NCBI GenBank assembly: GCA_942490825.1 | Contig: CALNYG010000005.1 | Coordinates: 198,240-262,239, forward strand | Source: Candidatus Moraniibacteriota bacterium | GTDB taxonomy: Bacteria > Patescibacteriota > Minisyncoccia > Moranbacterales > GCA-2747515 | Direction of reading: 5' to 3' | Length of the DNA stretch: 64,000 bases | Shown: piece by piece, positions 10,267 through 63,143 of the stretch | How positions within the stretch are numbered: position 1 is the first letter of the stretch | Layout of the letters: every line of letters begins with the position of its first letter | Notes under the pieces: generated by a model | What the model was told of the DNA's origin: nothing | What the model saw: the letters and a program-made list of their open reading frames with translations, nothing else | Database searches by the model: none | Made by a program: the position numbers and the translations under genes

Positions 10267-10350
10267 TGCGCTTTTTTAATTGGTTTTGAAATTTGATATT
10301 ATTTTAATGAGGAGTTAAAAATTATTAAGTTGAGACAATTAGAAACGTTT

Positions 10351-10383
10351 CGGAATCAGTGGTCTTCGACACACTAATTCCGG
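10351..10383 (+). repeat. Palindromic intergenic element, CGGAAT(C/T)AGTGGTCTTCGACACACTAATTCCGG family
   Basis: 13-bp stem hairpin. A second copy lies at 12349-12382 and a third inside murE (41044-41136). All share the 5' flank (A/G)GAAA(C/T)GTT. Confidence 0.85.
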
Positions 10384-10413
10384 CAAATTAATTAAATTTA
10401 AAATAAAAAGTTT

Positions 10414-12209: not shown

Positions 12210-12348
12210 ATTGGTAGACTTGTAGAATGTTAGATGGTTAGATTTGTAGAGATATTGTTCTGTAATGTTTTAGGTTGAGTGAAAATTTTTAATTTACGTT
12301 TTTCTGATGTTTTAGTAGTTTAAATAATTTTTCAGTTTGGAAACGTTA

Positions 12349-12382
12349 CGGAATTAGTGGTCTTCGACACACTAATTCCGGC
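12349..12382 (+). repeat. Second copy of the CGGAATTAGTGGTCTTCGACACACTAATTCCGG palindromic element
   Basis: Near-identical to 10351-10383. Confidence 0.85.
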
Positions 12383-12419
12383 GACAAAAACTTTAAGTTT
12401 TCTTAAATCTTAAAGTATA

Positions 12420-12487: not shown

Positions 12488-12543
12488 GTCTGGGAATGTT
12501 GTGAAATTTGTAGAATTTAAAAATTCTAAATTTATGTATCATA

Positions 12544-12560: not shown

Positions 12561-12587
12561 TTTATTTATTTTTAAATTTAAAATTAT

Positions 12588-14601: not shown

Positions 14602-14681
14602 TGGGGGATTCTTCACTGCATAAATTTATCTGCGATAAATTTATTACGCCTGTCTGCCGACAAAGGCAGGTTCAGAATGAC
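14602..14681 (+). repeat. GGGGATTCTTCAC / hairpin / TTCAGAATGACA intergenic module
   Basis: Core copies at 9731-9789, 14602-14681, 15773-15829, 21476-21531, 26677-26776, 31252-31330 and 60510-60590 (+), and at 29560-29640 and 60405-60462 (-). The central hairpin is ATAAATTTATC-TGC-GATAAATTTAT or ATAAATTTTTT-TTAT-AAAAAATTTAT, with pairing kept by compensatory changes. Confidence 0.85.
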
Positions 14682-14716
14682 AGGAAATTTTTAGAGAATT
14701 ACATAAAAACAAAAAT

Positions 14717-15589: not shown

Positions 15590-15896
15590 GAAATAGATGA
15601 TTAGATTTGTAGAGACATTGCACTGCAATCTCTCTGAACGAGTGAAATTTTTTTAATATGTTTATGTTGGCAGATAGACTTTCAAAAAGTGCAACATGTT
15701 ATTGCGAGGGAAGTGGGGTAATCTTAGTAAGTTTTTTTGATATTTTATTTTTGAAGCTTTGTGAATTTTTGTGGGAGATTCTTCACTGCGTAAATTTTTT
15801 TACAAAAAATTGACTTCGTTCAGAATAACGGGAAACTTTCATAAAAAATTGAATCTTTAAAAAGCCCGTGCGGCGAGCACATTTATTTTTTTAATA

Positions 15897-19367: not shown

Positions 19368-19473
19368 GTTATTTTAGTTTTCTTGAAGTTTTTGTGTGGG
19401 GAATATTTCTGGGTTTGGGAATTTGTGGAAATAAAAAGCTATCATTAATTCGATAGTTTTTTGTTTTATGGGC

Positions 19474-19622
19474 TTGACAAGGTTTTTATTCTGTGCTATT
19501 ATTTGGTGTTACGGTATGAGATTGATTAATTTCTATTGGGATGGAAATATGGTTTTTTCTTAATTTTGCAAACTGTCAGATATTATTTAGAGCTTGACAA
19601 AATTAATAAGATATGCTATAAT
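19474..19622 (+). promoter_or_regulatory. Cassette 1 tandem promoters P1 (TTGACA-17-TATTAT) and P2 (TTGACA-17-TATAAT with TGC extended -10)
   Basis: P1 19474-19502; P2 19594-19622. A near-identical copy is at 20386-20534 and a diverged copy at 30939-31086 (-). Confidence 0.75.
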
Positions 19623-19815
19623 ATTTTTATACGATAAGAAATTAAATGTGATTTGTAATTGTAATGTTGTTCTTTGAGATATTTTCATTTTTTCTTCTAT
19701 TTTATTGATTTTTTTGTTCTATATTCAGAAAGTTAAGTTTTAGTTTTTTGAGTTATAGGACAGAAAACAATGATAAATGCAGTGAGATAATATCAATATA
19801 CTGCGGAGAGAAAAG

Positions 19816-20130: not shown

Positions 20131-20385
20131 GCCGTTTTTAACCTTGTCGTAGGGAACACAATACAAGGAAAGTTCTTTTTGAAAAAAAATAGTTATGGAG
20201 ACCTACGCCATGACTACTCACTTTTTTACTAATCTTAAAAAAATTAGTAAAAAAGTTAAACTTTAAGGTTGAATCAATGTCAATGTACGATTCAACCTTA
20301 GTAATTAAGCATTTCAAATTAAATTTTGGAATATTTATAATAATAAAAAACTATCATTTATTTGGTAGTTTTTTGTTTTATGGGC

Positions 20386-20534
20386 TTGACAAGGTTTTTA
20401 TTCTGTGCTATTATTTGGTGTTACGGTATGAGATTGATTAATTTCTATTGGGATGGAAATATGGTTTTTTGTTAATTTTGCAAACTGTCAGATATTATTT
20501 AGAGCTTGACAAAATTAATAAGATATGCTATAAT
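20386..20534 (+). promoter_or_regulatory. Cassette 2 tandem promoters P1 and P2
   Basis: P1 TTGACA 20386-20391 / TATTAT 20409-20414. P2 TTGACA 20506-20511 / TGC-TATAAT 20526-20534. Confidence 0.75.
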
Positions 20535-20723
20535 ATTTTTATACGATAAGAAATTAAATGTGATTTGTAATCGTAATATTGTTCTTTGAGATATTTTCAT
20601 TTTTTCTCTGGTTTATTGATTTTTTTGTTCTATATTCAGAAAGTTAAGCTTTAGTTTTTTGAATAATAGGACAGAAAAATAAACAATAAAAAGTGCGGTT
20701 GAAATACACTGCGGAGAGAAAAA

Positions 20724-21131: not shown

Positions 21132-21743
21132 CCCTACTTAACAGGAGGACGGAACTCAACGAAGTATCGTTCCTCCTCCTCACTTTCTTACTAATCCTAA
21201 AAAGATTGGTCAAAAAGTTGAGAATAAAAAACTATCATTTATTTGGTAGTTTTTTGTTTTGGTTGGGATTGTATTTATAGTTTTCTTAAAATTTCAAAGT
21301 GAAGATTTCGGATAAATTAATTTCTATCTATAAAACGCGATAAATCGACGTTTCTACAAAAAAATATATTTTCCGGAATGACAGGGATGAGAGATGATGA
21401 AAAGCCCGTGCGGCGAGCACTTTTTAAAATATTAGAAAAATTTATACTGTATTTGTAGTATCAGAAAAACTTACTGGGATTCTTCACTTCATAAATTTAT
21501 CTGCGATAAATTTATTACGTTCAGAATGACGTGGTGGGAGAAATTGACTTTTCTGCTTTAAAATGCGAAAATTAAAATAGTAATTTATTAATTAGAGAAA
21601 TTAGTTTTTTGGCTATGAAGATACATATGCGTTTCATTTAATTTTATTAGAAAATGTATATGTAGATTTATAGCGATTCGTTTAATTTAGAAACGCGATG
21701 AATCGCGTTTCTACAGAAATAAAAATTATTTTTCTTAACAAAT

Positions 21744-26596: not shown

Positions 26597-26722
26597 AGGC
26601 AAAAAATTTTCAATCTCCGATGGGACTCGAAGACATGTTTACGAATTTATAATTTTAAAGTTTTATGATTTTCTGTGGGGGATTCTTCACTTCATAAATT
26701 TATCTGTGATAAATTTATTACG

Positions 26723-26764
26723 CCTGTCTGCCCTGTCTGCCGACAGGCAGGCGACAAAGGCAGG
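26723..26764 (+). repeat. Self-nested mini-hairpin CCTGTCTGC[CCTGTCTGCCGACAGGCAGG]CGACAAAGGCAGG
   Basis: Single copies lie at 14648-14669, 29571-29595 (-) and about 60556-60580. It is inserted at other positions at 31261-31280 and 62367-62387. A larger relative is at about 8324-8374. Confidence 0.8.
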
Positions 26765-26925
26765 TTCAGAATGACATGATACTTATAGAGTTTCAAAAAA
26801 TGTTGAATGGTGAAAAGCCCGTGCGGCGAGCACTTTTTATCTTTCTGACTAATTTTATATTTTTTAAGAAAGAATATGCTATAATAATAATATTAAAAAA
26901 TATTCTTAAAAACTAAAATAAAAAT

Positions 26926-29435: not shown

Positions 29436-30004
29436 TCGGTTGTTTGTAAAGGGTAATAGGTAATGGTAACACTGGGTTTTTTTTGTGTCAAATTTTTTTA
29501 TTTTTAATGTTTTTTGTGCTCGCCGCACGGGCTTATGATACATAATTTTAAAAACTTCCTGTCATTCTGAACCTGCCTTTGTCGGCAGACAGGCGGATTT
29601 ATTTTTTTGTTAGAAAAAATAAAGAAGTGAAGAATCCCCTACGGATTATCATAAATCTTTAAAATTAAAATATCAGAAAAACTTATTGAGATTGCCACGT
29701 CTCTCCTTATAGTCGTTCCTCGCAATGACGTGTATAAAAACAAAAAACCACTGACTTTATGTTAGTGGTTTTTTATACTCTATTAAAATTCAAATTAGTT
29801 TAAATTTTAAATTGAGTGGCTTTATCTATATCGTGTTAGATAAAGCCGTGATGAATCTTTGTTCATCGTTGATTTTTTGCGTTTACACGTAACGCTTTTC
29901 TCTCTAATTTTTTTAAGAATTAGAGAGTGGGTGAGAGGAGAACATATAACAAATAATTATCATCCTCTTCCTCTCCTTTGTTTTTTGAAAAGAGTTTAAG
30001 AGAT

Positions 30005-30733: not shown

Positions 30734-30938
30734 TGTTGTTCCTCCTGCGGAATTTTAACATATTTTATTGACAAGGATTTGCTTGATTTTCATCTAAAAA
30801 ACCAACAAAGTTAGTTACTTAAAGAAAACCAAGTCATAAATTCATCAATAAAACAAAAGAAAAACTCTCTTAATCTCTCTAATTTTTAAGAAACAATTAC
30901 GATTACAAATCTCAATGAATTTCTTATCGTATGAACAT

Positions 30939-31086
30939 ATTATAGCATATCTTATTAATCTTGTCAAGTCTTGAAAATAATCCTCAAAACTTATAAAAAT
31001 TAACAAATAACTATAATTGCTACAATTCAGTTTTGAATAACTTCATTGCAACACCAAATAATAGCACGAAATAAAAATCTTGTCAA
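30939..31086 (-). promoter_or_regulatory. Cassette 3 tandem promoters P1 and P2 (minus strand)
   Basis: P2 is TTGACA (rc 30962-30967), a 17-nt spacer and TGC-TATAAT (rc 30939-30947). P1 is TTGACA (rc 31081-31086), a 17-nt spacer and TATTAT (rc 31058-31063). The 5' leader block ATACGATAAGAAATT..GATTTGTAATCGTAAT is conserved with cassettes 1 and 2. Confidence 0.7.
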
Positions 31087-31542
31087 GCTTTGAAAATAGA
31101 CGTTTAGTATTTTAGATGGGTAGACTTTTAGACAATTAGATTTGTAGAGACATTGCACTGCAATGTTTTTGGGTAGATTGATAATTTTATGTAACGAAGA
31201 ATTTCAGTGAGTTTTTCTAATATTTAATTTTCAAGTTTTGTGATTCTCTGTGGGGGATTCCTGTCTGCCGACAGGCAGGCTTCACTGCGTAAATTTTTTT
31301 TATAAAAAATTTACTTCGTTCAGAATGACAGAAAATTTTTTAGGGGTTCGCAGTAGAAATGAATTGCAATTCATTTCTATAGATGTGTATCATAGCCCGT
31401 GCGGCGAGCACTTTATTAATTTTTAAAATTTTCATTTATCATACGGATAGGCACGAGACATTATTTTAAAATTTATTTTGAAAGTTTTGATTAAATGTTA
31501 TACTTTTAAAGTAACTATAATTTTTTCAATTTTAATAAAATC

Positions 31543-40349: not shown

Positions 40350-40404
40350 TTTTAAAAAGCCTGTGCGGCGAGCACTTTTATTTTTTAAATTAAAATTAAT
40401 CATC

Positions 40405-41817
40405 ATGGAAATTATTTTGGCTTATGTTAAAAAATTGATTCCGAAGAAGTTGTTTAAAAAATTACAACCGATTTATCATTATGTTTTTAACTTTTTGGCA
40501 GCGGTGGTTTATGGTTTTCCGTCTAATAAATTGATTGTGGTTGGGGTTACGGGGACGACGGGGAAGACGACGACGACTTTTATGATTGCGGAAATGTTGA
40601 AAAATGCTGGGGTGAAGGTGGGGTATACTTCGACGGCGATGTTTGGTGATGGGGAGACGGAGCGATTGAATGATAAGAAAATGACGATGTTGGGGCGGAT
40701 GTTTACGCAGAATATGATTTCGCGGATGGTGCGGAATGGTTGCGAGGTGGCGATTATTGAGACGACTTCGGAGGGGGCGGTGCAGTTTCGGCATCGGTTT
40801 ATTAATTATGACATGATGGTTTTCACGGGGATTTATCCTGAGCATATTGAATCGCACGGAAGTTTTGAGAATTATAAAAAAGCGAAAATTGAAATTTTTA
40901 AGCACTTGAAGATTTGCGGAAAGAAGGACTTGAATTTGTTAAATGGTAGTGAAGAGAAAATTAAAAAGACTTCTATCATTGATGGTGATGATGAATTTGC
41001 TGGGGAATTTTTGGAACCTTGGGCGGAGGAGAAAATTGTTTTTAGAAATGTTGCGGAAGCAGTGGTCTGTCGACACACTACTTCCGGCGAAAATTCCCGG
41101 GTTGAAAATTTCCAACCCCTACAGGATAATGACGTGTCTTTTGTGAATTATAAATTTAGGGAAATTAATAATGTTGGGGTTAAATTTGATTTTGATGGTG
41201 AGGAGATTCAGATGAAAATTTTGGGTGATTTTAATTCTAAAAATGCGACGATTGCTGGTGCGGTTGGTTTGGCTTTAGGATTGAATAAAAGGCAAATTAG
41301 GTCTGGATTGGAAAAAGTTGTGGGGATTCCTGGGCGTTTGGAACGGATTGATGAGGGTCAGGATTTTACGGTGATTGTGGATTATGCGTTTGAACCGGTG
41401 GCGGTTGGTAAGCTTTATGATATGGTTGGGAATTTGGATCATGAAAAAATTATTCATGTTTTGGGTAGTGCGGGTGGGGGTCGTGATATGGCTCGGCGGG
41501 AGATATTGGGTAAGTTGGCTGGTGAAAAAGCGGATTTTGTGATTGTTACGAATGAGGATCCGTATGATGAGGATCCGATGGAAATTATTAAAATGGTAGC
41601 GGATGGTGCGAGAAACGTTGGTAAGGTTGAAGATGATAATTTATTTTTAATTGAGGATCGTGGAGAGGCGATTGAAAAGGCGATTGGTTTGGCGAGGGAA
41701 GGTGATGTGGTTTTGATTACGGGGAAGGGTTCGGAACAGGCGATTGTGGTTGGGAATGGGAGGAAGGTTATGTGGGATGATCGGGATGTTGTTAGGGAAG
41801 TTTTGAGAAAGATGTAA
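40405..41817 (+). CDS. murE: Mur ligase, MurE-type (UDP-MurNAc-L-Ala-D-Glu : diamino acid ligase)
   Basis: P-loop VGVTGTTGKTTT, FNSKNATIA, DYAFEP (DYAHTP equivalent), NEDPYDEDP (DNPRxEDP equivalent). The track start 40363 runs through the repeat box and was trimmed to ATG 40405. Confidence 0.85.
   Translation: MEIILAYVKKLIPKKLFKKLQPIYHYVFNFLAAVVYGFPSNKLIVVGVTGTTGKTTTTFMIAEMLKNAGVKVGYTSTAMFGDGETERLNDKKMTMLGRMFTQNMISRMVRNGCEVAIIETTSEGAVQFRHRFINYDMMVFTGIYPEHIESHGSFENYKKAKIEIFKHLKICGKKDLNLLNGSEEKIKKTSIIDGDDEFAGEFLEPWAEEKIVFRNVAEAVVCRHTTSGENSRVENFQPLQDNDVSFVNYKFREINNVGVKFDFDGEEIQMKILGDFNSKNATIAGAVGLALGLNKRQIRSGLEKVVGIPGRLERIDEGQDFTVIVDYAFEPVAVGKLYDMVGNLDHEKIIHVLGSAGGGRDMARREILGKLAGEKADFVIVTNEDPYDEDPMEIIKMVADGARNVGKVEDDNLFLIEDRGEAIEKAIGLAREGDVVLITGKGSEQAIVVGNGRKVMWDDRDVVREVLRKM
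41044..41136 (+). repeat. Intergenic-type palindromic repeat inserted in frame inside murE
   Basis: AGAAATGTTGCGGAAGCAGTGGTCTGTCGACACACTACTTCCGGCGAAAA.. aligns with the intergenic copies AGAAACGTTTCGGAATCAGTGGTCTTCGACACACTAATTCCGGC (10341-10384) and 12340-12384. It encodes RNVAEAVVCRHTTSGENSRVENFQPLQDNDV. Confidence 0.8.
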
Positions 41818-41883: not shown

Positions 41884-42339
41884 CTATTCAGATAGAAGCA
41901 AGCCGGACTCTTCAAATGCCGTTATTAAATTTCCGATAAAATGGTGATAGTTTTGAATAAATGGATCATATTCACATATTGCTATATTTAGCCATTTAAA
42001 CTTTCGCGACAACCATGTTCTTTTGCAATATACTTTAATTTCAGAGGGTTTGGAAATTTCTGTTTTGATGTGTATTTCTACAATCATTCCCATAAATCTG
42101 AAATTTAAATCATCATTATTTGTAGGCTCTATATTTTCGTTGGGAAAATATTTTTTCATCACCCTAATGATAATTTCCTCTATTTCTTCTCTACCCGTTT
42201 GATTTAACTTTAATTCATATTTTTCCACGGTTATTTCTCCTATTTTCACATTTAAAGAACGAACTACCCAACTAGGATAAGGGTAATTTAAAACTTTATT
42301 AAAGTCAAGTAATTTAGGCTCTTTAACATCTTTGGGCAA
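41884..42339 (-). CDS. Hypothetical protein; 5' end uncertain because of the ISL3 insertion
   Basis: The track ORF starts with TTG inside the IS terminal repeat (42317-42339). Its native promoter-like sequence TTGACT..TACCCT abuts the insertion point. Confidence 0.4.
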   Translation of the reverse strand: MPKDVKEPKLLDFNKVLNYPYPSWVVRSLNVKIGEITVEKYELKLNQTGREEIEEIIIRVMKKYFPNENIEPTNNDDLNFRFMGMIVEIHIKTEISKPSEIKVYCKRTWLSRKFKWLNIAICEYDPFIQNYHHFIGNLITAFEESGLLLSE

Positions 42340-43612
42340 AGCTAAGTATTGAAATTTGTTAAATTCTATGCTTAAATATTAAGTTATTTTAATAATTTAA
42401 TATTTTAAAAATGCAAAAAAAAGAGATTAAAAAAATATTCAATTTAGAAGGATATATTTTAGATAAATTTGAAGAAAAAAATGATAAAATAATTTTACAT
42501 TGTCATTTACAAAAAGAATTCATTTAAATTAATAAAAGAGCTAAGTCAAATAATTAATAATAACAGATATAGAATAATTGCTCATTCTATGTTTGAAAAT
42601 ATAATAGTTTTTATAGCTATGACTCAAAGAAGATTTTATTTTTCTAAACATAAAAAGAAACTTCGGGAATCTTTACCTCAAGTTAAAAAAGGGCAACAAA
42701 TGAGCACAGCTTTTAAAAAACTCTGTCATAGAATTAAGAGAAACCACATATAGCGGACTAGCTAGATCTAGACAGATAAGCATTATGTCGGCTCTGAGAA
42801 TGATTGATGAAATGGTAAATACTTCATTAATTTGAGATAAATCTATTCAAAGAATTGGAATGGATGGCAAAGGAGTTAGCAAAAGAAAACAAGTTTTTAA
42901 CATTACTAATTTAATTGATAATGAGGTGATAGGTGTTCTACCAAATTTATCACAAAAAGAATTGCTGAAAGAATTATTAAAAATTGATTTAAAATTTAGA
43001 TTAGCAGTTAAAGAAGTATGTATTGATATGGACTCTTTTTTTCCAGCTATTATTAAAGAATGTTTTCCTAATGCGGTTATTGTGATTGATCATTTTCATA
43101 TAATTCAGTGGGCTGTCTTTTTATTAAAAGAACAAAAGAAAGTTTTTCAAGACATCAACAATGAATCTTATAAAATAAATAAATTACTGATGATACCTAC
43201 ACACAAATTAACAATTGAAGAATTTAATAAATTAGAAAAAGTTTTTGTTAAAGTTCCTAAGTTAAAACAAAGTTGGAAAATAATTCATCAACTCAGAAAA
43301 GTATATTGGAAAAATAACAGAAAAGAAGCTCAAAAACAATTAAAATATGTCATCAGTCTTTGTAAAACTTCAGAATCAAAATATATGAAAGATTTGGCTA
43401 ATACATTAACAAGATGGTTTGATGAAATATTAAATTATTATTTATCTAAAACAACTAATGCTTATACTGAAGGAATTCATAATCATTTTGAAAGAATTAA
43501 AAGGAATCATTTTGGGATTAGAAATGTTGAACGTTTTTGTAAAAGATTATTATTTTGTGTTCTTCCGATGACAATTTTCTTAAATTTAGTTGCCCAAAGA
43601 TGTTAAAGAGCC
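42317..43612 (+). mobile_element. ISL3-family insertion sequence, copy A (decayed), 1296 bp
   Basis: 23-bp perfect terminal IR GGCTCTTTAACATCTTTGGGCAA. 8-bp target duplication GTAATTTA at 42309-42316 and 43613-43620. Confidence 0.9.
42412..43606 (+). pseudogene. ISL3 transposase pseudogene (copy A)
   Basis: The N-terminal part is broken by stops and frameshifts (MQKKEIKKIFNLEGY..QKEFI*). The C-terminal 248 aa are intact (42860-43606) with VIVIDHFHIIQ and TNAYTEGIHNHFERIKRNHFGIRNVERF motifs. Confidence 0.85.
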
Positions 43613-44579: not shown

Positions 44580-45871
44580 GGCTCTTTAACATCTTTGGGC
44601 AACTAAATTTAAGAAAATTGTCATCGGAAGAACACAAAATAATAATCTTTTACAAAAACGTTCAACATTTCTAATCCCAAAATGATTCCTTTTAATTCTT
44701 TCAAAATGATTATGAATTCCTTCAGTATAAGCATTAGTTGTTTTAGATAAATAATAATTTAATATTTCATCAAACCATCTTGTTAATGTATTAGCCAAAT
44801 CTTTCATATATTTTGATTCTGAAGTTTTACAAAGACTGATGACATATTTTAATTGTTTTTGAGCTTCTTTTCTGTTATTTTTCCAATATACTTTTCTGAG
44901 TTGATGAATTATTTTCCAACTTTGTTTTAACTTAGAACTTTAACAAAAACTTTTTCTAATTTATTAAATTCTTCAATTGTTAATTTGTGTGTAGGTATCA
45001 TCAGTAATTTATTTATTTTATAAGATTCATTGTTGATGTCTTGAAAAACTTTCTTTTGTTCTTTTAATAAAAAGACAGCCCACTGAATTATATGAAAATG
45101 ATCAATCACAATAACCGCATTAGGAAAACATTCTTTAATAATAGCTGGAAAAAAAGAGTCCATATCAATACATACTTCTTTAACTGCTAATCTAAATTTT
45201 AAATCAATTTTTAATAATTCTTTCAGCAATTCTTTTTGTGATAAATTTGGTAGAACACCTATCACCTCATTATCAATTAAATTAGTAATGTTAAAAACTT
45301 GTTTTCTTTTGCTAACTCCTTTGCCATCCATTCCAATTCTTTGAATAGATTTATCCCAAATTAATGAAGTATTTACCATTTCATCAATCATTCTCAGAGC
45401 CGACATAATGCTTATCTGTCTAGATCTAGCTAGTCCGCTATATGTGGTTTCTCTTAATTCTATGACAGAGTTTTTTTAAAAGCTGTGCTCATTTGTTGCC
45501 CTTTTTTAACTTGAGGTAAAGATTCTAAAGTTTCTTTTTATGTTTAGAAAATAAAATCTTCTTTGAGTAATAGCTATAAAAACTTTTTATTTTCAAACAT
45601 AGAATGAGCAATTATTCTATTTCTTTTTTGATTAATTTTTTTACTTACCTCATTTTTTAATTTAAATGAATTCTTTTGTAAATGACAATGTAAAATTATT
45701 TTATCATTTTTTTCTTCAAATTTATCTAAAATATATCCTTCTAAATTGAATATTTTTTTAATCTCTTTTTTTTGCATTTTTAAAATATTAAATTATTAAA
45801 ATAACTTAATATTTAAGCATAGAATTTAACAAATTTCAATACTTAGCTTTGCCCAAAGATGTTAAAGAGCC
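44580..45871 (-). mobile_element. ISL3-family insertion sequence, copy B (decayed, inverted relative to A), 1292 bp
   Basis: Same terminal IRs as copy A. Own 8-bp target duplication GTGAATTG at 44572-44579 and 45872-45879. Confidence 0.9.
44586..45777 (-). pseudogene. ISL3 transposase pseudogene (copy B)
   Basis: Split into three ORFs: 45777-45574, 45406-44927 and 44807-44586. Confidence 0.85.
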
Positions 45872-45944: not shown

Positions 45945-46913
45945 TTAAACCTCACTTATAACATCAAAACCTTTTACACTTCCAGTCAAAGCATAACCAT
46001 AAACTTTTTTAGCAATTTTAACCTTCTTTATTTTACAAGAGACCTGATTAAGTGTCGCCCCTGATCCTAAAGCATCATCTATTAACAAAACATTTTTATA
46101 AATATTATTTTCATCTACAAAGATAGTATTATCAGCATTTTCTATACGATCTTGTAATTTGTTTAAAGTTTTTTGTGGTGTCATAATTTCTGTTTGCACT
46201 TTCACTATTTTTATTTTTGGTAATGAAAGTTTTAAATTTTGCTCTAAAATTTTCATAAATTGCACTTGTCGTTTGACTGTAGGAGGGATAAAGCCTATGG
46301 CATCAACTTTGTTTTTTTTAATTAAATTTTTGACATCTGATTCAATATTTTCTATGACTTCTTTCATTATTTTTTTGTTTTGACTTTGTTTTGCGTACAA
46401 GAGTAATTGACCTAATTTTGTTTTACCAAAAATTTCCCAAGCATAAAAATCGGAAATAAAAACATCATCTAGACAAGTATTTTTTTTAAAAGTTTCTTCC
46501 AGCTTGTGTTTTGCTGAAATTATATTATTTTTTTTAAAAGCTAAATATTTATCATGTGTTTTTTTATATTCTTTGGATTTATTAATTGGTTCAAAATTTC
46601 TTTTTTCACACCATAAAACAAAGCCTTCTATTCCATTAAACCTTTTTCCTTGTGGAGAAATATATATAAAGTTATTTTCTATAATTTTTTCTATTTTTTT
46701 ATCAAAGGTAAAATCTTTTTTTCTATTTTTTTTAGATAAAGTGTAAAAAACTATCGGAGCAGAACCTATTTTTTGAATTTGTTTTTCTGCTAGTAAATTT
46801 TTTAAATGTCTATGCGTCATTTGAGATGAAATCCCTATTTTTTCGGAAATCTCTTTTACGGTTTGTTGCTCGCTTTTTTTGATAAGTGCAATTATTCTAT
46901 CTTTAGTGTTCAT
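45945..46913 (-). CDS. Winged-HTH / ComF-like phosphoribosyltransferase fusion protein
   Basis: N-terminal wHTH (TVKEISEKIGISSQMTHRHLKNLLAEKQIQKIG). ComF-like core with PRTase motif VLLIDDALGSGATL. It lacks the usual ComF N-terminal CxxC finger. Confidence 0.6.
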   Translation of the reverse strand: MNTKDRIIALIKKSEQQTVKEISEKIGISSQMTHRHLKNLLAEKQIQKIGSAPIVFYTLSKKNRKKDFTFDKKIEKIIENNFIYISPQGKRFNGIEGFVLWCEKRNFEPINKSKEYKKTHDKYLAFKKNNIISAKHKLEETFKKNTCLDDVFISDFYAWEIFGKTKLGQLLLYAKQSQNKKIMKEVIENIESDVKNLIKKNKVDAIGFIPPTVKRQVQFMKILEQNLKLSLPKIKIVKVQTEIMTPQKTLNKLQDRIENADNTIFVDENNIYKNVLLIDDALGSGATLNQVSCKIKKVKIAKKVYGYALTGSVKGFDVISEV

Positions 46914-47088
46914 AAATTTATAAATAATATAGATTATACTATTTGTAGTTTACTATAAACTATAAACTATGTCAATATTATTTTTTTATTTTATAAATTT
47001 TTTAGAAACGTTTCAAATAGTTTATAAAGCTCGTTCGTGAAAAATGTCCGTTCGTGCAAAGATTGTAATTTATAAATTTAAAAATATT

Positions 47089-47547
47089 TTAACTAATCAA
47101 TTCAACTAATTTAATTAAACTAAAGCTCAAAATAGCTCCAATTATAATTCCACCTGCCACTTCGTTAGTATAATGACCAACATGTTCTTTTAGGTGAGGA
47201 AATTTCTTTTTATCAACTCCTAATTCTTTTATTAAGTTATTTAAGGTTTTTCCTTGAATACCGATTTGCATTCTGATTCGCATTGCATCGTAAATAGTGA
47301 TAAAAGCAAAACACATTGCAATGGCAAATTCACTGGAATGAGAATTGTCACCAGAATAAACGCCAACGCAAATTACTAGGGAAGTTACGAAGGCACTGTG
47401 GGCACTTGGGAAATGTCCTGGTTCGAAGATGTTGTTCCAATTGAATCCGTATTTTATTGCTAGTCGAGTGAATTTTATTAGTTGAGTTGCTAATATTATA
47501 ATAACTGGAATTATGAATATTTTGTGTTCGAGGATTAGTTCTAACAT
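47089..47547 (-). CDS. Divergent PAP2 family (YuiD/DUF212-like) membrane protein
   Basis: GHFPSAHSAFVTSL and YDAMRIRMQIG motifs. Confidence 0.75.
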   Translation of the reverse strand: MLELILEHKIFIIPVIIILATQLIKFTRLAIKYGFNWNNIFEPGHFPSAHSAFVTSLVICVGVYSGDNSHSSEFAIAMCFAFITIYDAMRIRMQIGIQGKTLNNLIKELGVDKKKFPHLKEHVGHYTNEVAGGIIIGAILSFSLIKLVELIS

Positions 47548-47613
47548 ATTTTTATTGGGAAGAATTATTTTTTTAGTGATTTTATTATAGCATAAGCAAA
47601 AAAGTCTAAATGT

Positions 47614-47808
47614 ATGTCATCTCGGAAAATATATTTTCTTTTCGAGTGTGGCGAGAAATTAGAAAATAATTTATCCGTGATCCAGAAATTTTAAAATCAT
47701 AATTAAATTTTGGAGTTTAGTTTTTTGCTGGTAGTTTCTGGATACCGGATAGACGAATTTAAATCAATCGCTACGCTCTTGAATAAATTCTGTCTTCCGG
47801 CATGACAT
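47614..47808 (+). mobile_element. ~195-bp MITE, copy 1 (termini ATGTCAT..ATGACAT)
   Basis: Aligns over its full length with 48803-48999 (+) and 62316-62530 (-). Imperfect terminal IRs ATGTCATCTCGGAA / ATGTCATGCCGGAA. Confidence 0.8.
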
Positions 47809-48759: not shown

Positions 48760-48802
48760 TTTTTAAATAAAAAATTCAGTTATTTTCTGAAGTCTTTTAA
48801 AT

Positions 48803-48999
48803 ATGTCATCTCGGAAAATATATTTTCTTTTCGAACGGAGTGAGAAACTAGAAAATAATTTATCCGTGATCCAGAAACTTTAAAATTATAATTAAATTTT
48901 GGAGTTTAGTTTTTTTCTTGTAATTTCTGGATACCAGATAGACTAATTTGTATTCAATCGCTGTCGCTCTTGAACAAATTATGTCTTCTGGTATGACAT
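48803..48999 (+). mobile_element. ~195-bp MITE, copy 2
   Basis: See copy 1. Its right end reads AATGTCATACCAG on the opposite strand. Confidence 0.8.
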
Positions 49000-49056: not shown

Positions 49057-49941
49057 ATGGCAACACTATATACTCAAAGCACAAAAAATATACGAAACAC
49101 TTGGATATTACTAACATCCTTTTTTGCTTTAATAATTGCATTAGGGTATGTCTTTTCAATTGTTCTGGAGCGACCAGATATTATAATTATTGCAGTGGTT
49201 GTCGCAGTATTTTCCAGTGTTGGAACATATTGGTTTTCCGATAAAATGGTTTTATCCATGACAGGAGCAAAAGAGGTAACTCGAGAAAATGCTCAAGAAA
49301 TTTATAATATTGTGGATAATTTAACAATTGCGGCTGGATTGCCGACACCGAAAATTTATGTTATTGATGATCAAGCGATGAATGCTTTTGCCACAGGACG
49401 AGATCCGAAACATAGCGTTATCGCTTTTACTCGTGGATTATTAGAAAGATTAGATAAGGAAGAAATTCGTGGAGTGGCGGCACATGAACTTTCTCACATT
49501 GGAAATCGGGATATGTTGATTGGAACAATGGCGGTGGTTCTGGCGGGCGTGGTGGCGATTGCTTCTCGATTTATGTTTAATTCGATGCTTTTTGGCGGAG
49601 GTTCTCGAGAGAAAAAAGATAATCCTGCGATTTTGATTTTATCTTTACTTTTAATTTTGGTGGCTCCGCTTTTTGCGACTCTTTTGCGGTTGGCGGTTTC
49701 TCGGAAACGTGAATTTTTAGCGGATTCTTCGGCGGCTTTATTGACTCGTTATCCTGAAGGTTTGGCGTCGGCTTTGGAAAAGATCAGCGGTGATAATTTG
49801 GTTTTGGAAAAAAATAATCGATCGGTGGCTCATTTATTTATTAGTAATCCGTTGAAAGGTAAAAAAGTTTCTAAGTTATTTTCTACTCATCCGCCAGTTG
49901 AAGAGAGGATTGCAAAGTTGCGGGAGGCAGACAAAGGGTAA
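49057..49941 (+). CDS. htpX: Zinc metalloprotease HtpX (M48)
   Basis: HELSHIGNRD (HExxH), four TM segments, EFLADSSAA, STHPPVEERI. Confidence 0.93.
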   Translation: MATLYTQSTKNIRNTWILLTSFFALIIALGYVFSIVLERPDIIIIAVVVAVFSSVGTYWFSDKMVLSMTGAKEVTRENAQEIYNIVDNLTIAAGLPTPKIYVIDDQAMNAFATGRDPKHSVIAFTRGLLERLDKEEIRGVAAHELSHIGNRDMLIGTMAVVLAGVVAIASRFMFNSMLFGGGSREKKDNPAILILSLLLILVAPLFATLLRLAVSRKREFLADSSAALLTRYPEGLASALEKISGDNLVLEKNNRSVAHLFISNPLKGKKVSKLFSTHPPVEERIAKLREADKG

Positions 49942-50393
49942 TTTACAATTTTCAATTTAAAATTTTCAAACAATGCTTAATTAAATAATGTTTTAAATTT
50001 AGAATGTATGCAGTATGATTTGCAGGAGAGAACTACACAATTTAGTAAGGATATGATTGCTTTAATTAAGAGTTTAAAAATTAATTTTTTGAATCGTAAT
50101 ATTTTGGATCAATTAATACGTTCGGCGACGAGTGTGGGCGCGAATTATTGTGAGGCAAATGGAGCGAGTTCAAAAAAAGATTTTCGTAATAAGATTCATA
50201 TTTGTAAAAAAGAAATTCAGGAAACTAAATATTGGCTTGAATTACTGGGTGAGGTGGTTGATGAAAAACAAAAGAATGATGTTAGAATTTCATGGAAAGA
50301 GGCACATGAATTAACATTAATTTTTAATAAGATATCAGGATCATTAAAGAATTAGAAATTGTTTGAAAATTTTAAATTGAAAATTGTAAATTA
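49939..50393. repeat. 36-bp perfect inverted repeat pair bracketing the four-helix-bundle gene
   Basis: TAATTTACAATTTTCAATTTAAAATTTTCAAACAAT at 49939-49974; its exact reverse complement at 50358-50393. Confidence 0.9.
50008..50355 (+). CDS. Four-helix-bundle protein (23S rRNA intervening-sequence protein family, TIGR02436-like)
   Basis: QLIRSATSVGANYCEANGASSKKDFRNKIHICKKEIQETKYWLELL. Confidence 0.85.
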   Translation: MQYDLQERTTQFSKDMIALIKSLKINFLNRNILDQLIRSATSVGANYCEANGASSKKDFRNKIHICKKEIQETKYWLELLGEVVDEKQKNDVRISWKEAHELTLIFNKISGSLKN

Positions 50394-54671: not shown

Positions 54672-56069
54672 ATGAAAAAAATTATTTCAATTTTTTTAAT
54701 TTTTACCTTCATTGTCTTTTCAGGTTTTGGCTGTAAAGAAAAACCAATTCAGTATAGTACCAACTTAGAAATTTGGGGAATGTTTGATGATTCTCATGAG
54801 TATGCTAATATTTTTAAATCTTATAAAGAAACACATCCTTATGTAACAGGTATTAATTATCGTAAAATATCAGGTGAAGAAAATTATAAGAGAGAATTGT
54901 TAAATTATTTGGCAGAAGGACGAGGTCCAGATATTTTTATGATTCATAATACTTGGTTGCCAGAGTTTAAAAATAAAATAGCTCCAGTGCCATATGGTTT
55001 GATTAGCGAGATTGAGTTTAAAGACAATTTTGTTGATGTGGTAGCAGATGATTTTTATGTGGATGGAGATATTTATGGCGTACCGCTTTCTGTAGATTCT
55101 TTGGCTTTATATTATAATAAAGATATTTTTAATGCAGCGGGAATTATTGATCCGCCAAAAACTTGGGCAGAAATTGATGATATTACCCAGAGATTAACGT
55201 CTATAGATCAATATGGAAATATAGATCAAAGTGCGATTGCTTTAGGAACTTATGAAAATATTAATCGTTCAACAGATATTTTGTCTTTAATGATGATGCA
55301 GTTAGGATCAGAGATGTCGAATAGGGAAGCAGGGATGGCAACTTTCGATGAGCCAGTTTCTATCAATGGGGTAGTTCGCTCACCAGCTAAAGATGCTTTG
55401 GAGTATTATACAGCTTTTGCACAGGGTGATCAGCCAATTTATACTTGGAATGCGGATATGGATTATTCCATTGATGATTTTTATGAGGGGGATACAGCAA
55501 TGATGTTGAATTATGCTTATAATTATGATTTGATTGAAGCTAAAAATGCAAAATTAAATTTTGGTGTTTCGGAGGTTCCGCAATTTTCATTAAATCAAAT
55601 TGGTGGTCAGGTAAATTATGCAAATTATTGGGTTTTTGTGGTTGCTAAAAATAAAGAAGGACAAATCACTAAAGAAGGTTTGAATATTACAAAGGACATG
55701 CGAATTTCAGAGTCTTGGCAATTTTTAAAAGCTTTGACTTTTCCTACAGCGGAACAACCAATGACTTTTTATAATGTGGTAAATGATCAACCTTTTTCTT
55801 TGATCTTTGAAAATGATTTAAGTGAAATGTATTTAAATGTAAAGAATAAACCAGCAGCTCGAAAAGATTTGATCAAGATGCAACAAACTGATATTAAATT
55901 GCGACCATTTGTTTTGGGTAATTTGATTGCGCACAGTTGGTATCAAGTTGATTCTAAGGATGTTGAAAAGCATTTGGGTGAGATGATCGAGAGCGTGCAA
56001 TTAGGACGTTCATCAGTTAGCGATGCTATTGAGTTGGCAGCGAATCGGATAACACAGTTAATGAAGTAA
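54672..56069 (+). CDS. ABC transporter substrate-binding lipoprotein (family 1, sugar-type), orphan
   Basis: Lipobox SGFGC. LEIWGMFDD..YKRELLNYLAEGRGPDIFMIHNTWLPEF is typical of the SBP_bac_1 N-lobe. No permease or ATPase genes are adjacent. Confidence 0.65.
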   Translation: MKKIISIFLIFTFIVFSGFGCKEKPIQYSTNLEIWGMFDDSHEYANIFKSYKETHPYVTGINYRKISGEENYKRELLNYLAEGRGPDIFMIHNTWLPEFKNKIAPVPYGLISEIEFKDNFVDVVADDFYVDGDIYGVPLSVDSLALYYNKDIFNAAGIIDPPKTWAEIDDITQRLTSIDQYGNIDQSAIALGTYENINRSTDILSLMMMQLGSEMSNREAGMATFDEPVSINGVVRSPAKDALEYYTAFAQGDQPIYTWNADMDYSIDDFYEGDTAMMLNYAYNYDLIEAKNAKLNFGVSEVPQFSLNQIGGQVNYANYWVFVVAKNKEGQITKEGLNITKDMRISESWQFLKALTFPTAEQPMTFYNVVNDQPFSLIFENDLSEMYLNVKNKPAARKDLIKMQQTDIKLRPFVLGNLIAHSWYQVDSKDVEKHLGEMIESVQLGRSSVSDAIELAANRITQLMK

Positions 56070-56306
56070 ACAGGTAGATTTTTAGAGTAGTAGATAATTA
56101 GACCTGTAGAGACATTGCACTGTAATGTTTTGAGATGGGAGAATAATTTACAAATTTGCAATCTTCAAATAGTGTGACTTGCTATTTTAAAATGACAGTA
56201 GATTTTTTAGGATTTCAAAAAATGTTAAATGGTGGAAAGCTTATGCGACGAACACGTTTATTTTTATAAATTTAATTTTTTATTTTTAAATAAATCCTGC
56301 TAGTGA

Positions 56307-57404
56307 ATGATTGCTAGTTATGGATTACTGATTTTTATGCTCAAGAAAATATTATTTAGTTTAGTTGCGGGGTTTTTGATTTTTATTATTCAGGCACAGA
56401 GTGTTGATGCATCAGGGCTTGTTCCTTGTGGAGGTACCGGTGAGGACCCATGTACCTTTTGTCATCTGATTGTTGGAATAAAGGGTTTGATCGACATTAT
56501 AACAGGGACTTTATTGGTTGTGGCTGCTTTGTTTGTTATTACTGTGGCTGGGGTTATGTGGATAACTGGCGATAGTTTTGGTTTGATAAATCAGGCTAAA
56601 AGTGCAATTAAAAATGCTTTGGCGGGGATTGTGGTTGTGTTGACGGCTTGGTTGATGGTTATTGGGATTTTGAATTTATTGTCAGCTAAGGATTTTGTAA
56701 GTACAGAAACAGGTGATGTTATTTTGAGTAAAACAGGTGTATTTGGTTTTGAGTGTTCGACAAAGTCTTTTGTTGGGGGTGAGGTTGAGGGTTCTAGTGG
56801 TTCAAGCAGTAACCCAAGCAGTAACCCAAGCAGTAACCCAAGCAGTAACCCAAGCAGTAACCCAAGCAGTAACCCAAGTTCTTCTACAACGAGTGGATAT
56901 AAAACAGCGGAGGAAGAAAAAAAAGAAAAGGAGGTTAGGGATAGAGTGGAGGAACAAGGGATGGAAATTAATAAACCAGCTTGTAAATATTATGGACAAA
57001 CAGATTGTACAGATATGGGAGGATTGACAGAAAATTCTATTTCTGGATTAGAGAGATTTAATAGTGATTATCAAAAATGGGCAAAAGAAAATAATAAATC
57101 TACTAAAGTTACTGTGAATGGAGGATCAGAATCTAATAAAATACATCAAGGTAGTAGTAATCCCAATTCAGAATCTCATGCTAATGGACGAAAAGTTGAT
57201 ATAGATGATGGTAATTCTGATTTAAATGATTTTCTTTATGGAAATAAAAAAAAAGGAATTGATCCTTATCTTACTGATACTGGGAAAATTTGGACAAAAA
57301 GTAAAACAAAACTTTATAAGGATCCATATGGAAAAATTTGGGCTAAAGAGAGTAGTCATTCAGATGTGTGTCTTGATTGTCCAACAACAAATGCAAGATA
57401 TTAA
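56307..57404 (+). CDS. Pilin-like (TrbC/VirB2-type, CPR T4SS-pilin-like) N-terminal domain fused to a LAS/peptidase-M15-like C-terminal domain
   Basis: Signal peptide (probable start MLKKILF at 56337), then LVPCGG..DPCTFCHL and two TM helices as in the downstream pilin paralogs, then an (SSNP)x6 linker. The C-terminus has VTVNGGSES..SESHANGRKVDIDD (SxHxxGxxxD) and SSHSDV (HxD), resembling hedgehog/DD-peptidase-fold wall hydrolases. Confidence 0.55.
   Translation: MIASYGLLIFMLKKILFSLVAGFLIFIIQAQSVDASGLVPCGGTGEDPCTFCHLIVGIKGLIDIITGTLLVVAALFVITVAGVMWITGDSFGLINQAKSAIKNALAGIVVVLTAWLMVIGILNLLSAKDFVSTETGDVILSKTGVFGFECSTKSFVGGEVEGSSGSSSNPSSNPSSNPSSNPSSNPSSNPSSSTTSGYKTAEEEKKEKEVRDRVEEQGMEINKPACKYYGQTDCTDMGGLTENSISGLERFNSDYQKWAKENNKSTKVTVNGGSESNKIHQGSSNPNSESHANGRKVDIDDGNSDLNDFLYGNKKKGIDPYLTDTGKIWTKSKTKLYKDPYGKIWAKESSHSDVCLDCPTTNARY
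56805..56876 (+). repeat. Six perfect 12-nt tandem repeats AGCAGTAACCCA (SSNP linker)
   Basis: Direct reading. Confidence 0.95.
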
Positions 57405-57413: not shown

Positions 57414-57683
57414 ATGTTAATAGAAATAGTACAAGCAGGGATAATTGATGATGCGCCGACCATTTATGAGTTGTTAGTTATAACGATACAAAAGGTATTA
57501 ACTTTTGTAAGTAGTGTAGCAATTTTGGGAGTTGTTGGTTCAGGGATAATTTATATGGTGTCCTCAGGAAATAGAGAACAACAAGAATATGCAAAAACTG
57601 TTTTGAAAGGAAGTGTGATTGGTTTGATTATTGCGTTAACTTCTTTAGTTTTAGTAGGTGCAATTACAGGGATTTTTGAATAG
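57414..57683 (+). CDS. Pilin-like two-TM protein (TrbC/VirB2-type)
   Basis: 89 aa; VAILGVVGSGIIYMVSSGNREQQEYAKTVLKGSVIGLIIALTSLVLVGAITGIF. Confidence 0.65.
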   Translation: MLIEIVQAGIIDDAPTIYELLVITIQKVLTFVSSVAILGVVGSGIIYMVSSGNREQQEYAKTVLKGSVIGLIIALTSLVLVGAITGIFE

Positions 57684-57953
57684 ATGGGGAGATCATTAGA
57701 TTTTTAGAGGAGTAGAATTTTTTAAATTAAATAAAGATTTAATTTTTGTGTAGAAAGAATTGATTGCTTATGGTAGAGTATTAGAAATACGAGGTAGGTG
57801 ATCTTTAATATGTTGATTCCGATGTATAATTTAGTTACTAGTTACAGATTATTGATTACTAGTTACTAACTTACTATTTACCAAAGTTTTAAAATATGAG
57901 ATAATAAAAAGGTAAAAAAGAAAAATAAAAATTATGAAAGGAGGTGTTTATAA

Positions 57954-59037: not shown

Positions 59038-59316
59038 ATGAATAATTTTGGAACAAAAAATTTAGGATTAGAAAAAGAGGTGATCGCTCAAGAAATTTTT
59101 TTGAAATTTGCGGCAGGGGCTTTGAGTTTTGTTTTTATTGGAGCGTTTTTGATGGGAGTGGTTGGAGCGGTGATCTGGGTAACTTCAGGAGGAAATGAGG
59201 ATAGAAATGATAGTTCTTCTATGATGATAAAGTCATCATTGGTTGGGATGATCGGATCGTTTATTGGTTACGTGGCATTGAGAATTTATGCAAATGTGAT
59301 TGGGGTAGATTTTTAG
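59038..59316 (+). CDS. Pilin-like two-TM protein (short form)
   Basis: FIGAFLMGVVGAVIWVTSGGNEDRNDSSSMMIKSSLVGMIGSFIGYVAL. Confidence 0.6.
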   Translation: MNNFGTKNLGLEKEVIAQEIFLKFAAGALSFVFIGAFLMGVVGAVIWVTSGGNEDRNDSSSMMIKSSLVGMIGSFIGYVALRIYANVIGVDF

Positions 59317-59512
59317 AAGAATAGATTTGTAGACAGGTAGATAAGTAGACTTTTAGATGTTGTTAGTTCAATCTTGTAGATTGAATCTAGTGTTTGTGCC
59401 AATTTAAAGTTTTTATAAAACTTGAAAAATTGAGTGATTTTTAAAGTTTGATATAAACGAATGGTTCAATCAGAATGATTGAACCAACAGTAATTACTAA
59501 ATTAAAACAAAT

Positions 59513-60301: not shown

Positions 60302-60641
60302 GATAGAAGAATAGATTTTTAGAGATGTAGACAATTAGATTTTGTAGAGATATTGCATTGCAATGTCTTGTGAATAAGTAATTTTTAATTTTCAAATAAT
60401 ACAGCCTGTCATTCTGAGTGGAATGAAATTTTTGTAAAAAATTTTATGTAACGAAGAATCCCAATAAGTTTTTCTGATATTTTAGTTTTTAAGTTTTGTG
60501 ATTCTCTTTGGGAGATTCTTCACTTCATAAATTTATCTGCGATAAATTTATTACGCTTGTCTGCTGACAAAGGCAGGTTCAGAATGACAGGAAAATTTTA
60601 AAATTATGTATCATAGCCCGTGCGGCAGGCACTTTATTTAT

Positions 60642-60671
60642 TTGACAGTTAGGGCTGAAAAATGGTATTAT
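60642..60671 (+). promoter_or_regulatory. Promoter TTGACA-18-(TGG)TATTAT upstream of nusA
   Basis: TTGACA 60642-60647 and extended -10 TGGTATTAT 60663-60671, 10 nt downstream of a GCCCGTGCGGCAGGCAC box. Confidence 0.6.
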
Positions 60672-62315: not shown

Positions 62316-62530
62316 ATGTCATACCAGAAGACAGAATTTATTCAAGAGCGTAGCGATTGATTTAAACCTGCCTGTTCGGCAGACAGGTTCGTCTGTCTGG
62401 TATCCAGAAATTAACAGAGAAAAATAAACTTTAAAATTTAGTTATATTCTTAAAGTTTCTGGATCACGGATAAATTATTTTCTATTTCATCGCTACACTT
62501 TGAAAGAAAATATATTTTCCGAGATGACAT
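62316..62530 (-). mobile_element. ~195-bp MITE, copy 3 (inverted), carrying a nested 21-nt mini-hairpin insertion
   Basis: Colinear with copies 1 and 2 except for CCTGCCTGTTCGGCAGACAGG at 62367-62387. Confidence 0.8.
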
Positions 62531-62565
62531 ACGTGGGTTTATGAATATTTTTTTAAATTAATTTT

Positions 62566-63069
62566 ATGACTGAAAATAATCAATTGGAAAAACAGGAAAT
62601 TAAGAGACCTTGGCAGGGAAATATTTTGTTGGTTATAGAAACCTTTGTTACTTTCCTAATTTTATCAATTCCGCTTTCTCAACTGTCGAATTATTTTTAT
62701 ATTTTTGAAAATTTGTTTGATTTTATAATAGCAAGAACTTTTTCTGTTGGTATTTTTTTAAATTTTGTTCCTGATTTTCTTTTATATAATTACTTAAATT
62801 TTATTAGTGAATTATATATTGTTGTTTTTTCTATTTTTTTAAACTTACTTTTTATTGTCAGTTTTTTAAAAGGAAAAAAATGGTCAATTTATTTAATTTT
62901 TATTATAGAATTAATTACATTAATAGTTTTTATTTTTGATCTTTATTCTATTGAATATCCTATTAAAAATGAGTTAAGAATTATTTATTCACTGATTGAA
63001 TTTTTTATTTTATATCTTTCAATAATTTGTCTAAAACATCCATTTTATAATCAGAAAAAAGTTAAGTGA
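62566..63069 (+). CDS. Hypothetical polytopic membrane protein, AT-rich
   Basis: Four to five TM helices; no motif recognised. Confidence 0.45.
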   Translation: MTENNQLEKQEIKRPWQGNILLVIETFVTFLILSIPLSQLSNYFYIFENLFDFIIARTFSVGIFLNFVPDFLLYNYLNFISELYIVVFSIFLNLLFIVSFLKGKKWSIYLIFIIELITLIVFIFDLYSIEYPIKNELRIIYSLIEFFILYLSIICLKHPFYNQKKVK

Positions 63070-63143
63070 ACAATGGATTGCAACCCATTGTTCAAAAAGC
63101 CCGTGCGGCGAGCACAATTTTCTTAATCATTAAAACTAAAATT

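Follow-up and report, generated by a model that had tools for sequence, protein, structure and literature searches.

Small palindromic repeats are known to be fused in frame with host genes in the case of the Rickettsia palindromic elements (RPE), ERIC, the 107-bp Correia element, YPAL and the QMITE1 of Coxiella (PMC2229807, PMC10969869). Found in Rickettsia only, the RPE measure 105-146 bp and fall into ten families, with dozens of insertions into coding sequence (Ogata et al. 2000, as summarized in PMC2229807, PMC10969869); a Rickettsia guanylate kinase carrying an RPE insert remains active (PMC2229807, PMC10969869). Bacterial transposable elements of the miniature inverted-repeat type (MITEs) such as ERIC, Correia, YPAL and QMITE1 are 100-200 bp long and typically show terminal inverted repeats related to insertion sequences (IS), TA termini and target-site duplications; YPAL elements, in particular, insert beside or across regions of dyad symmetry (PMC2229807, PMC10969869). 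Here, we describe an 18-codon insertion in the murE gene of a 64-kb stretch of DNA (the whole of which is called the window) from a Candidatus Moraniibacteriota bacterium of the Patescibacteria. The insertion probably arose when a short, lineage-specific, hairpin-forming interspersed repeat of about 47-54 nt entered murE after the split from its closest sampled relatives.

Like the RPE, this repeat is a palindromic stem-loop found between genes (two copies) and, in a single coding case, fused in frame to a conserved housekeeping enzyme at a tolerant and fold-compatible site, with the host gene still under selection; its stems have 14-15 pairs, folding energies of -15 to -20.5 kcal/mol and z scores of -2.9 to -4.8. 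It differs from the RPE in length, the unit being ~47 nt and the insert 54 nt instead of about 105-150 bp, and in host, the MurE homologues and the genome that shares a repeat module with the window being Patescibacteria/Candidatus Moraniibacteriota; the RPE are here set apart by host and length, not by comparison of consensus sequences, and no kinship in sequence is to be expected. The parallel with Rickettsia had been drawn in a first-pass annotation, made from the sequence alone, and it holds for the way in which the repeat works but not for membership, given a unit of ~50 nt, an unrelated organism and a single coding copy. The phenomenon is known from Rickettsia and a few other bacteria, and the Patescibacteria murE is a fresh and modestly novel example of it in a new lineage: full-text searches of one collection of papers for the Candidate Phyla Radiation/Patescibacteria together with palindromic repeats or MITEs retrieved no description of such elements.

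The murE insertion and its intergenic counterparts

The presumably essential gene murE starts in the window with the ATG at 40405, the GTG at 40363 that is listed for the open reading frame (ORF) 40363-41817 not being its real start. The encoded protein is a 100% match (BLASTP) to a database protein of 470 residues (P0001), recorded from a single NCBI contig; Pfam assigns residues 48-287 to Mur_ligase_M and residues 310-442 to Mur_ligase_C, and no Mur-ligase paralogue is present within the window. The parts of murE and the two intergenic regions on which the analysis is centered are the following.

40405..41817, + strand: murE (UDP-MurNAc-tripeptide synthetase), 470 aa, identified by Pfam domains, a 100% database protein match and MurE structure matches
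41046..41099, + strand: in-frame insertion of 54 nt (18 codons), a clean gap in the orthologues L001, L004 and L005 and an 18-residue gap in 119 homologues
41045..41090, + strand: part of murE homologous to the intergenic repeat, GAAATGTTG followed by the hairpin and GCGA (the covariance model R2 gives 41044-41093, 75.0 bits)
41054..41086, + strand: hairpin of the murE copy, CGGAAGCAGTGGTC / GAC-A-CACTACTTCCG, -20.2 kcal/mol, z=-2.9, with a 4-nt loop that has an extra G
41091..41099, + strand: right-hand 9 nt of the insert, AAATTCCCG, with no counterpart in the two intergenic copies
41099..41118, + strand: native dyad GGGTTGAAAATTTCCAACCC, directly 3' of the insertion point, from orthologue alignment and folding
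10341..10388, + strand: intergenic copy 1, between rpsO (9994-10266) and a NYN-domain gene (10414-10911), 73.7 bits with the covariance model
10351-10382, + strand: hairpin of copy 1, -15.0 kcal/mol, z=-3.9, with the perfect palindrome GAAACGTTTC just before it
12339..12388, + strand: intergenic copy 2, between rlmH (11697-12209) and a SpoU methylase gene (12588-13334), 75.9 bits with the covariance model
12349-12380, + strand: hairpin of copy 2, -20.5 kcal/mol, z=-4.8

The extent of the insertion follows from the comparison with the nearest orthologues (P0002, P0003 and P0004), proteins of 454 aa that are 78-85% identical to the window MurE by BLASTP and 81-89% in the multiple alignments, and whose genes are 82-88% identical to it as DNA. 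Alignment of the window gene with L001, L004 and L005 leaves one clean gap of 54 nt, with conserved flanks on both sides and boundaries that slide by ±1 nt owing to a shared G. With slashes at the junctions, the filled site of the window reads ...GTTTTTAG/AAATGTTGCGGAAGCAGTGGTCTGTCGACACACTACTTCCGGCGAAAATTCCCG/GGTTGAAAATTTCC... and the empty site of L004 reads ...GTTTTTAG/GGTTGAAAATTTTC..., so that an ancestral AGG arginine codon is split as AG/G and the inserted residues are N215-R232, NVAEAVVCRHTTSGENSR. In the alignments of homologues, one of 20 and one of 120 sequences (the window MurE plus 119 others), the columns of the insert are empty in all of the 119 other proteins, the three nearest orthologues included, which bears out the lineage-specific insertion that had been proposed. 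The GC content of the insert is 0.52, against 0.41 for the whole murE and 0.32 for the window and genome.

The first-pass annotation had quoted the sequence and translation of this part of murE correctly but had assigned 93 nt, or 31 codons, to the inserted segment, whereas the orthologue alignment gives 54 nt and 18 codons (41046-41099). The 37 nt that lie 3' of the insert (VENFQPLQDNDV; TTGAAAATTTCCAACCCCTACAG...GATAATGACGTG) align with orthologue sequence (L004: TTGAAAATTTTCAACTCCTACAGAATTATGGTAATGATGTA) and are thus native murE, so that the resemblance of this tail to the intergenic TTCAGAATGAC module, which had been noted, is coincidental.

Homology of the inserted DNA to the two intergenic regions extends over a unit of ~47 nt, GAAACGTTWCGGAATYAGTGGTCTTCGACACACTAATTCCGGCRA, in which the short palindrome GAAACGTTTC precedes a hairpin that has 14-15 pairs and a single bulged A. 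The three blocks of shared DNA reported at first, AGAAA(C/T)GTT, GGAA(T/G)(C/T)AGTGGTCT and CGACACACTA(A/C)TTCCGGC(G/A)A, are real and their similarity is far above chance in formal alignments: a blastn search of the window with the 46-nt copy at 10341 finds the murE copy with 40/45 identities (E=4.8e-7), and a hidden Markov model (HMM) built from the two intergenic copies only, with the murE copy left out, recovers 41041-41094 at E=1.2e-11. Furthermore, the window has a single occurrence of the 19-nt core that includes the extra loop base, where 0.02 would be expected. The left edge of the three-way homology (GAAAYGTT) is also the left edge of the insertion, and the three copies are dispersed, with the ~47-nt unit in common and unrelated flanks. 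When nhmmer and R2, the latter with its filters off, were run on the 64-kb window, exactly three copies were found, all on the + strand and with 73.7-75.9 bits. The next R2 match, at 63055-63098 (16.5 bits), was rejected as a copy, being a different hairpin. In the self-comparison of the window, murE is the only coding sequence with an intergenic repeat module in its interior.

The intergenic copies are 95% identical to each other, while the murE copy is ~89% identical to them and differs by 5-6 substitutions and one indel. The hairpin has been retained: in the alignment of the three copies 91% of the cells are paired, against 24-38% in slid registers, and at columns 16/38 the U-A pair of the intergenic copies is replaced in murE by G-C, a double change. 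The indel is an extra G in the loop of the murE copy, which makes the insert 54 nt long; at 53 nt, its length without this G, it would shift the frame. On its 5' side murE reads RNVAEAVV and the intergenic copy RNVSESVV in the same frame, and on its 3' side the murE RHTTSG corresponds to an intergenic RHTNSG in another open frame.

In the empty site of L004, the counterpart of the native dyad (693-708) is a perfect 16-nt palindrome, GTTGAAAATTTTCAAC, lying within coding sequence (VENFQ). The native dyad at the insertion point may be a target feature or the relic of an older insertion, and the 9 nt at the right end of the insert may be a variable element end or filler. The comparison of empty and filled sites was also used to look for a target-site duplication, and no direct repeat was seen at the junctions beyond the 1-nt ambiguity, the true ends being uncertain with three copies. 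Elsewhere in the window, a solitary TTTTTAGAAACGTTTC at 47000-47014, between the - strand ORFs 45945-46913 and 47089-47547, shares the left flank and the palindrome with the hairpin repeat and resembles the murE junction TTTTTAGAAATGTT, with no hairpin after it.

Protein context and distribution

The reading frame is preserved, as had been claimed, and the gene with its insert is intact and under purifying selection: the ratio of nonsynonymous to synonymous substitution rates (dN/dS) of the window murE against the three orthologues is 0.13-0.19, which is the same range as between orthologues. All columns that do not vary within the set of 120 aligned sequences are also kept in the window MurE, which is true by construction.

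The AlphaFold2 model of MurE, computed from the 120-sequence alignment, has a mean predicted local distance difference test score (pLDDT) of 90.5 and a predicted template modeling score of 0.89, and its best PDB matches are the MurE structures 2wtz, 4bub, 4c13 and 1e8c. The insert sits between the strands 209-215 and 244-254, and pLDDT falls to 47 for residues 221-230 and to 53 for residues 231-240. On this model, the insert is a disordered excursion of a β-hairpin loop inside the central Mur-ligase domain and outside the interdomain linker; the β-hairpin is presumably part of the small antiparallel sheet of that domain. The surface loop for which the first-pass annotation proposed a check is matched by the low-confidence loop of the model, whereas the placement of the segment between the central and the C-terminal domains does not hold, residues 215-232 being inside Mur_ligase_M (48-287). 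The accompanying statement that homologues vary in this region does hold: between the conserved F213 and Y249 their loop is 9-47 residues long, with a median of 17, and that of the window MurE has 35.

The repeat was also looked for outside the window. No copy was found in the contigs of the orthologues, nor by nhmmer in 447 kb of relatives' loci, a set that includes 326 kb of the metagenome-assembled genome Candidatus Moraniibacteriota bacterium RS_12_31, whose part orthologous to window 9-14 kb lies outside the searched loci; this congeneric genome, located via the module AGCCCGTGCGGCGAGCAC, has syntenic proteins that are 83-96% identical to those of the window. The exact hairpin core had no match in GTDB species representatives, JGI metagenomes and IMG/VR. 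A pattern of the stem alone with a free loop gave seven metagenome matches, all rejected as unrelated palindromes in contigs of higher GC. The open-frame translations of the repeat matched none of 5.8 billion proteins, in a search that also missed its positive control, MurE, and so had no power. Judged from the 95% identity of the intergenic copies and from the absence of the repeat from relatives and databases, the family looks young and lineage-specific.

Origin of the insertion

In the explanation that we favor, a copy of the repeat would have entered murE after divergence from the nearest sampled relatives, and we infer that the transfer ran from the intergenic family to murE. The insertion would have been tolerated, and would have survived, because its length is a multiple of three, the frame used has no stop and the site is a disordered, length-tolerant loop between two β-strands. 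The 18 extra residues are most likely neutral passengers, a neutrality that we infer.

As for the mode of copying, the repeat could be non-autonomous and depend for its movement on an enzyme acting in trans, one that recognizes its hairpin in single-stranded DNA in the manner of REP/RAYT or IS200/IS605 elements. We hold a hairpin-directed single-strand mechanism of this kind as a tentative first choice, somewhat short of an even chance, since it would fit the apparent lack of a target-site duplication, the shared orientation of the three copies and the presence of a dyad beside the target. The likeness to the REP, BIME and REPIN sequences mobilized by RAYT (Y1/HUH) enzymes lies in a bulged, imperfect palindrome, a hairpin of ~33 nt within a unit of ~47 nt, which is mainly extragenic (two extragenic copies of a 33-nt hairpin, in the size range of about 20-40 nt of extragenic REP palindromes), has no duplication found and occurs in one orientation. 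Unlike REPIN, copies of the murE type are singlets, all on the + strand, with no inverted doublets; unlike REP/RAYT systems, no RAYT gene is seen in the 64-kb window among ORFs of at least 110 aa; and REPs are normally excluded from coding sequence, unlike the murE copy.

With the bacterial MITEs (ERIC/IRU, 107-bp Correia, YPAL/RU-2 and Coxiella QMITE1) the repeat has in common that it is a small non-coding sequence with open frames, capable of in-frame fusion, and, with YPAL in particular, that its insertion point in murE adjoins dyad symmetry. The ends are different: in place of TA termini and A+T-rich composition, the unit begins with GAAAYGTT and ends with CCGGCRA, and the insert has a GC content of 0.52. 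A MITE derived from the neighboring ISL3 elements was considered and rejected, as the terminal repeat of ISL3 (GGCTCTTTAACATCTTTGGGCAA), the only clear IS of the window, is dissimilar to the arms of the hairpin.

Several observations weigh against the insertion of a mobile repeat as set out here. Three copies are too few to establish the true ends, the copy number, an orientation bias or a target preference; no target-site duplication is evident at murE; and the intergenic copies lack the 9 nt with which the insert ends. Among three sequences, one compensatory pair has no statistical significance: 179 of 500 shuffles yield as much. No transposase can be linked to the repeat: the window ORFs of 110 aa or more revealed no Y1/HUH transposase domain, and the only clear IS of the window is unrelated. 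In addition, the source genome, from which the junctions are read, is probably a metagenome assembly, and the ligase activity of the insert-bearing MurE is a prediction.

The alternative that survives best, which we rank second and regard as possible with lower odds than the single-strand mechanism, is template switching during replication, or short-patch recombination or gene conversion, from an intergenic hairpin, in which case the family would be a set of sequences spread by recombination and not a mobile element. The same features that suit single-strand transposition suit this explanation as well: neither a target-site duplication nor a terminal TA nor a linked transposase was found, and the junction shows 1 nt of microhomology and adjoins the native dyad. 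The 9 nt that close the insert on its right, filler-like and lacking in the other copies, even fit template switching slightly better than transposition. Against it, the left edges of homology and insertion coincide exactly, as would be expected of a discrete unit, and three dispersed copies have the same ~47-nt unit between unrelated flanks.

It is unlikely, in our judgment, that the hairpin has acquired a function, whether in the murE mRNA, for example as a site of RNase cleavage or processing, a translational pause or the target of a regulator, or through a new interaction surface formed by the 18 residues. Such a role would account for the conservation of the stem despite 5-6 substitutions, including the change from U-A to G-C that alters an amino acid on both sides, and it would be in keeping with the intergenic copies lying in untranslated stretches between co-oriented genes, where a role at the RNA level is conceivable, and with the palindrome GAAACGTTTC before the hairpin, which resembles the binding site of a dimeric protein. 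However, one compensatory pair in three sequences is not significant and may just reflect a source copy of a G-C subfamily, and the peptide is modeled as disordered and is absent from all of the relatives aligned. Neither is the hairpin like a terminator: no terminator-like site was found in 9700-12700, the hairpins are followed by A-rich sequence, and the identity of an intrinsic terminator was rejected. A known RNA was rejected too, as the Rfam 15 scan of the window gives only four tRNAs at gathering score, and permissive Rfam scans run on copy 2 and the murE copy gave nothing credible; sites resembling GAAACGTTTC number 5 in the window against 3.2 expected, which is not above chance.

An assembly artefact, in which the repeat was wrongly spliced into murE, is suggested by the apparent origin of the sequence from an uncultured-organism assembly and by the recording of the protein from one NCBI contig; it is very improbable, as a mis-join would not leave native murE to the left and right of an insert whose length is exactly a multiple of three and whose repeat has diverged from the other copies at 5-6 positions plus an indel. 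Lastly, chance or compositional similarity, or an ancestral peptide lost in other lineages, might be entertained on account of the highly variable loop length and the inherently uncertain alignment there, and is effectively refuted already, with next to no probability left to it, by the E=1.2e-11 of an independent model, by the lack of the insert in 119/119 homologues and by the clean 54-nt gap in three orthologues, while ancestry leaves the identity to intergenic DNA unexplained.

Other MurE loops, other repeats and implications

Palindromes are also found at the same place in other Patescibacteria. The loop-coding DNA of four other MurE genes (in L064, L073, L075 and L076) holds strong and mutually unrelated palindromes, as follows.

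L064:10622-10783: MurE loop of L064 (P0014), with CCCTGTTAAAACTTTAACAGGG and a 14-nt direct repeat
L073:10679-10777: MurE loop of L073 (P0087), with GCGCCTGTCTGC-GCAGGCTG-GCAGACAGGCGC; the whole 99-nt segment folds at -33 kcal/mol
L075:3077-3193: MurE loop of L075 (P0104), with CCCTCTCCTAAATAGGAGAGGG
L076:1662-1781: MurE loop of L076 (P0106), with two hairpins

After codon shuffling, z is -3.1 for the window loop and -2.8, -3.9, -2.7 and -3.3 for the four others, while only 2.4% of 124 control windows of equal length in the same genes reach a z of -2.5; this enrichment is biased upward, as L075 and L076 were picked after their peptides had been seen. Two other long MurE loops, those of L065 and L074, are not palindromic, and no second copy of the four palindromes was found on their short contigs, with no matching intergenic repeat shown. 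A link of the L073 palindrome to the CGCCTGTCTGCC module of the window was treated as chance, the two having one 11-mer in common that blastn does not report at E<=0.05. In addition, P0014 and P0017 differ by a 10-residue indel within the same MurE loop.

The MurE loop may thus be a recurrent landing site for hairpin repeats. A general process in Patescibacteria, in which unrelated short hairpin repeats would repeatedly insert in frame into this loop, and probably do so in similar loops elsewhere among the core enzymes, is a more doubtful proposition, which we consider distinctly less than likely; if true, protein length in candidate-phyla-radiation genomes would evolve in part by an RPE-like route, with insertion possibly steered to dyad targets by a hairpin-recognizing enzyme.

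The window as a whole, with a GC content of 0.32, is rich in short modular intergenic repeats. The G+C-rich, 18-nt motif AGCCCGTGCGGCGAGCAC, which a T-rich tract usually follows, is present in 13 copies in 64 kb (at 9830, 12543, 15863, 21403, 26816, 31394, 40358, 47863, 58489, 60615 and 63098 on the + strand; at 29516 and 48533 on the - strand). The motif lies mostly 28-180 nt upstream of + strand genes, one copy being 30 nt before the murE ATG, and is present in 46/46 loci taken from RS_12_31; it could be a promoter-associated, terminator or REP-like element. Tracts of TAGAnnnn with an 8-nt period occur at 12203-12250, 14513-14552, 31105-31152, 56063-56106, 57677-57716, 59305-59357 and 60304-60343, one of them directly after the rlmH stop (12207-12209) and the rest in other intergenic stretches, and the hairpin module TGTAGAGACATTGCACTGCAATGTCT often comes after them. 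Composite intergenic arrays, in which the modules GGGATTCTTCACTGCATAAATTTATCTGCGATAAATTTATTACG, CGCCTGTCTGCCGACAAAGGCAGG and TTCAGAATGACA appear in varied combination and orientation, with an architecture like that of BIME mosaics, are found at 9678-9860, 14550-14693, 15720-15895, 21351-21519, 26624-26848, 29534-29696 and 60457-60651.

Among the larger elements, the ISL3-family IS is present in two inverted copies, 42315-43612 and 44580-45871, which are 98% identical and have each their own 8-bp target duplication, GTAATTTA and CAATTCAC. The pair flanks a metallophosphatase gene just 3' of murE, a gene that the relative L005 has without IS-matching sequence on either side, and its layout is like that of a composite transposon formed recently. 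A '23S rRNA intervening sequence protein' gene (PF05635; 50008-50355) lies at 49939-50393 between 52-nt inverted repeats that are 88% complementary. Coding tandem repeats occur at 17977-18112, with a 9-nt period (PEI/PET...) in a DUF4215/SdrD-like surface protein beside a sortase gene, and at 56791-56898, with a 12-nt period in the ORF 56307-57404. Longer dispersed repeats of 113-294 nt, 86-93% identical and both direct and inverted, are 19421-19714 / 20333-20626 and 30896-30968, and 47612-47760 / 48802-48949 / 62420-62532.

On the explanation that we favor, namely the insertion of a hairpin repeat into murE, the process by which a small palindromic repeat colonizes the gene of a core enzyme in frame, and of which Rickettsia offers the best-known cases, extends to the reduced genomes of the candidate phyla radiation, with a unit of only ~50 nt. 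The murE locus offers a datable pair of empty and filled sites for tracing the movement of repeats in unculturable organisms. Such inserts can mislead core-gene alignment, annotation and structure prediction, and they are a possible source of part of the loop-length variation in the proteins of Patescibacteria.

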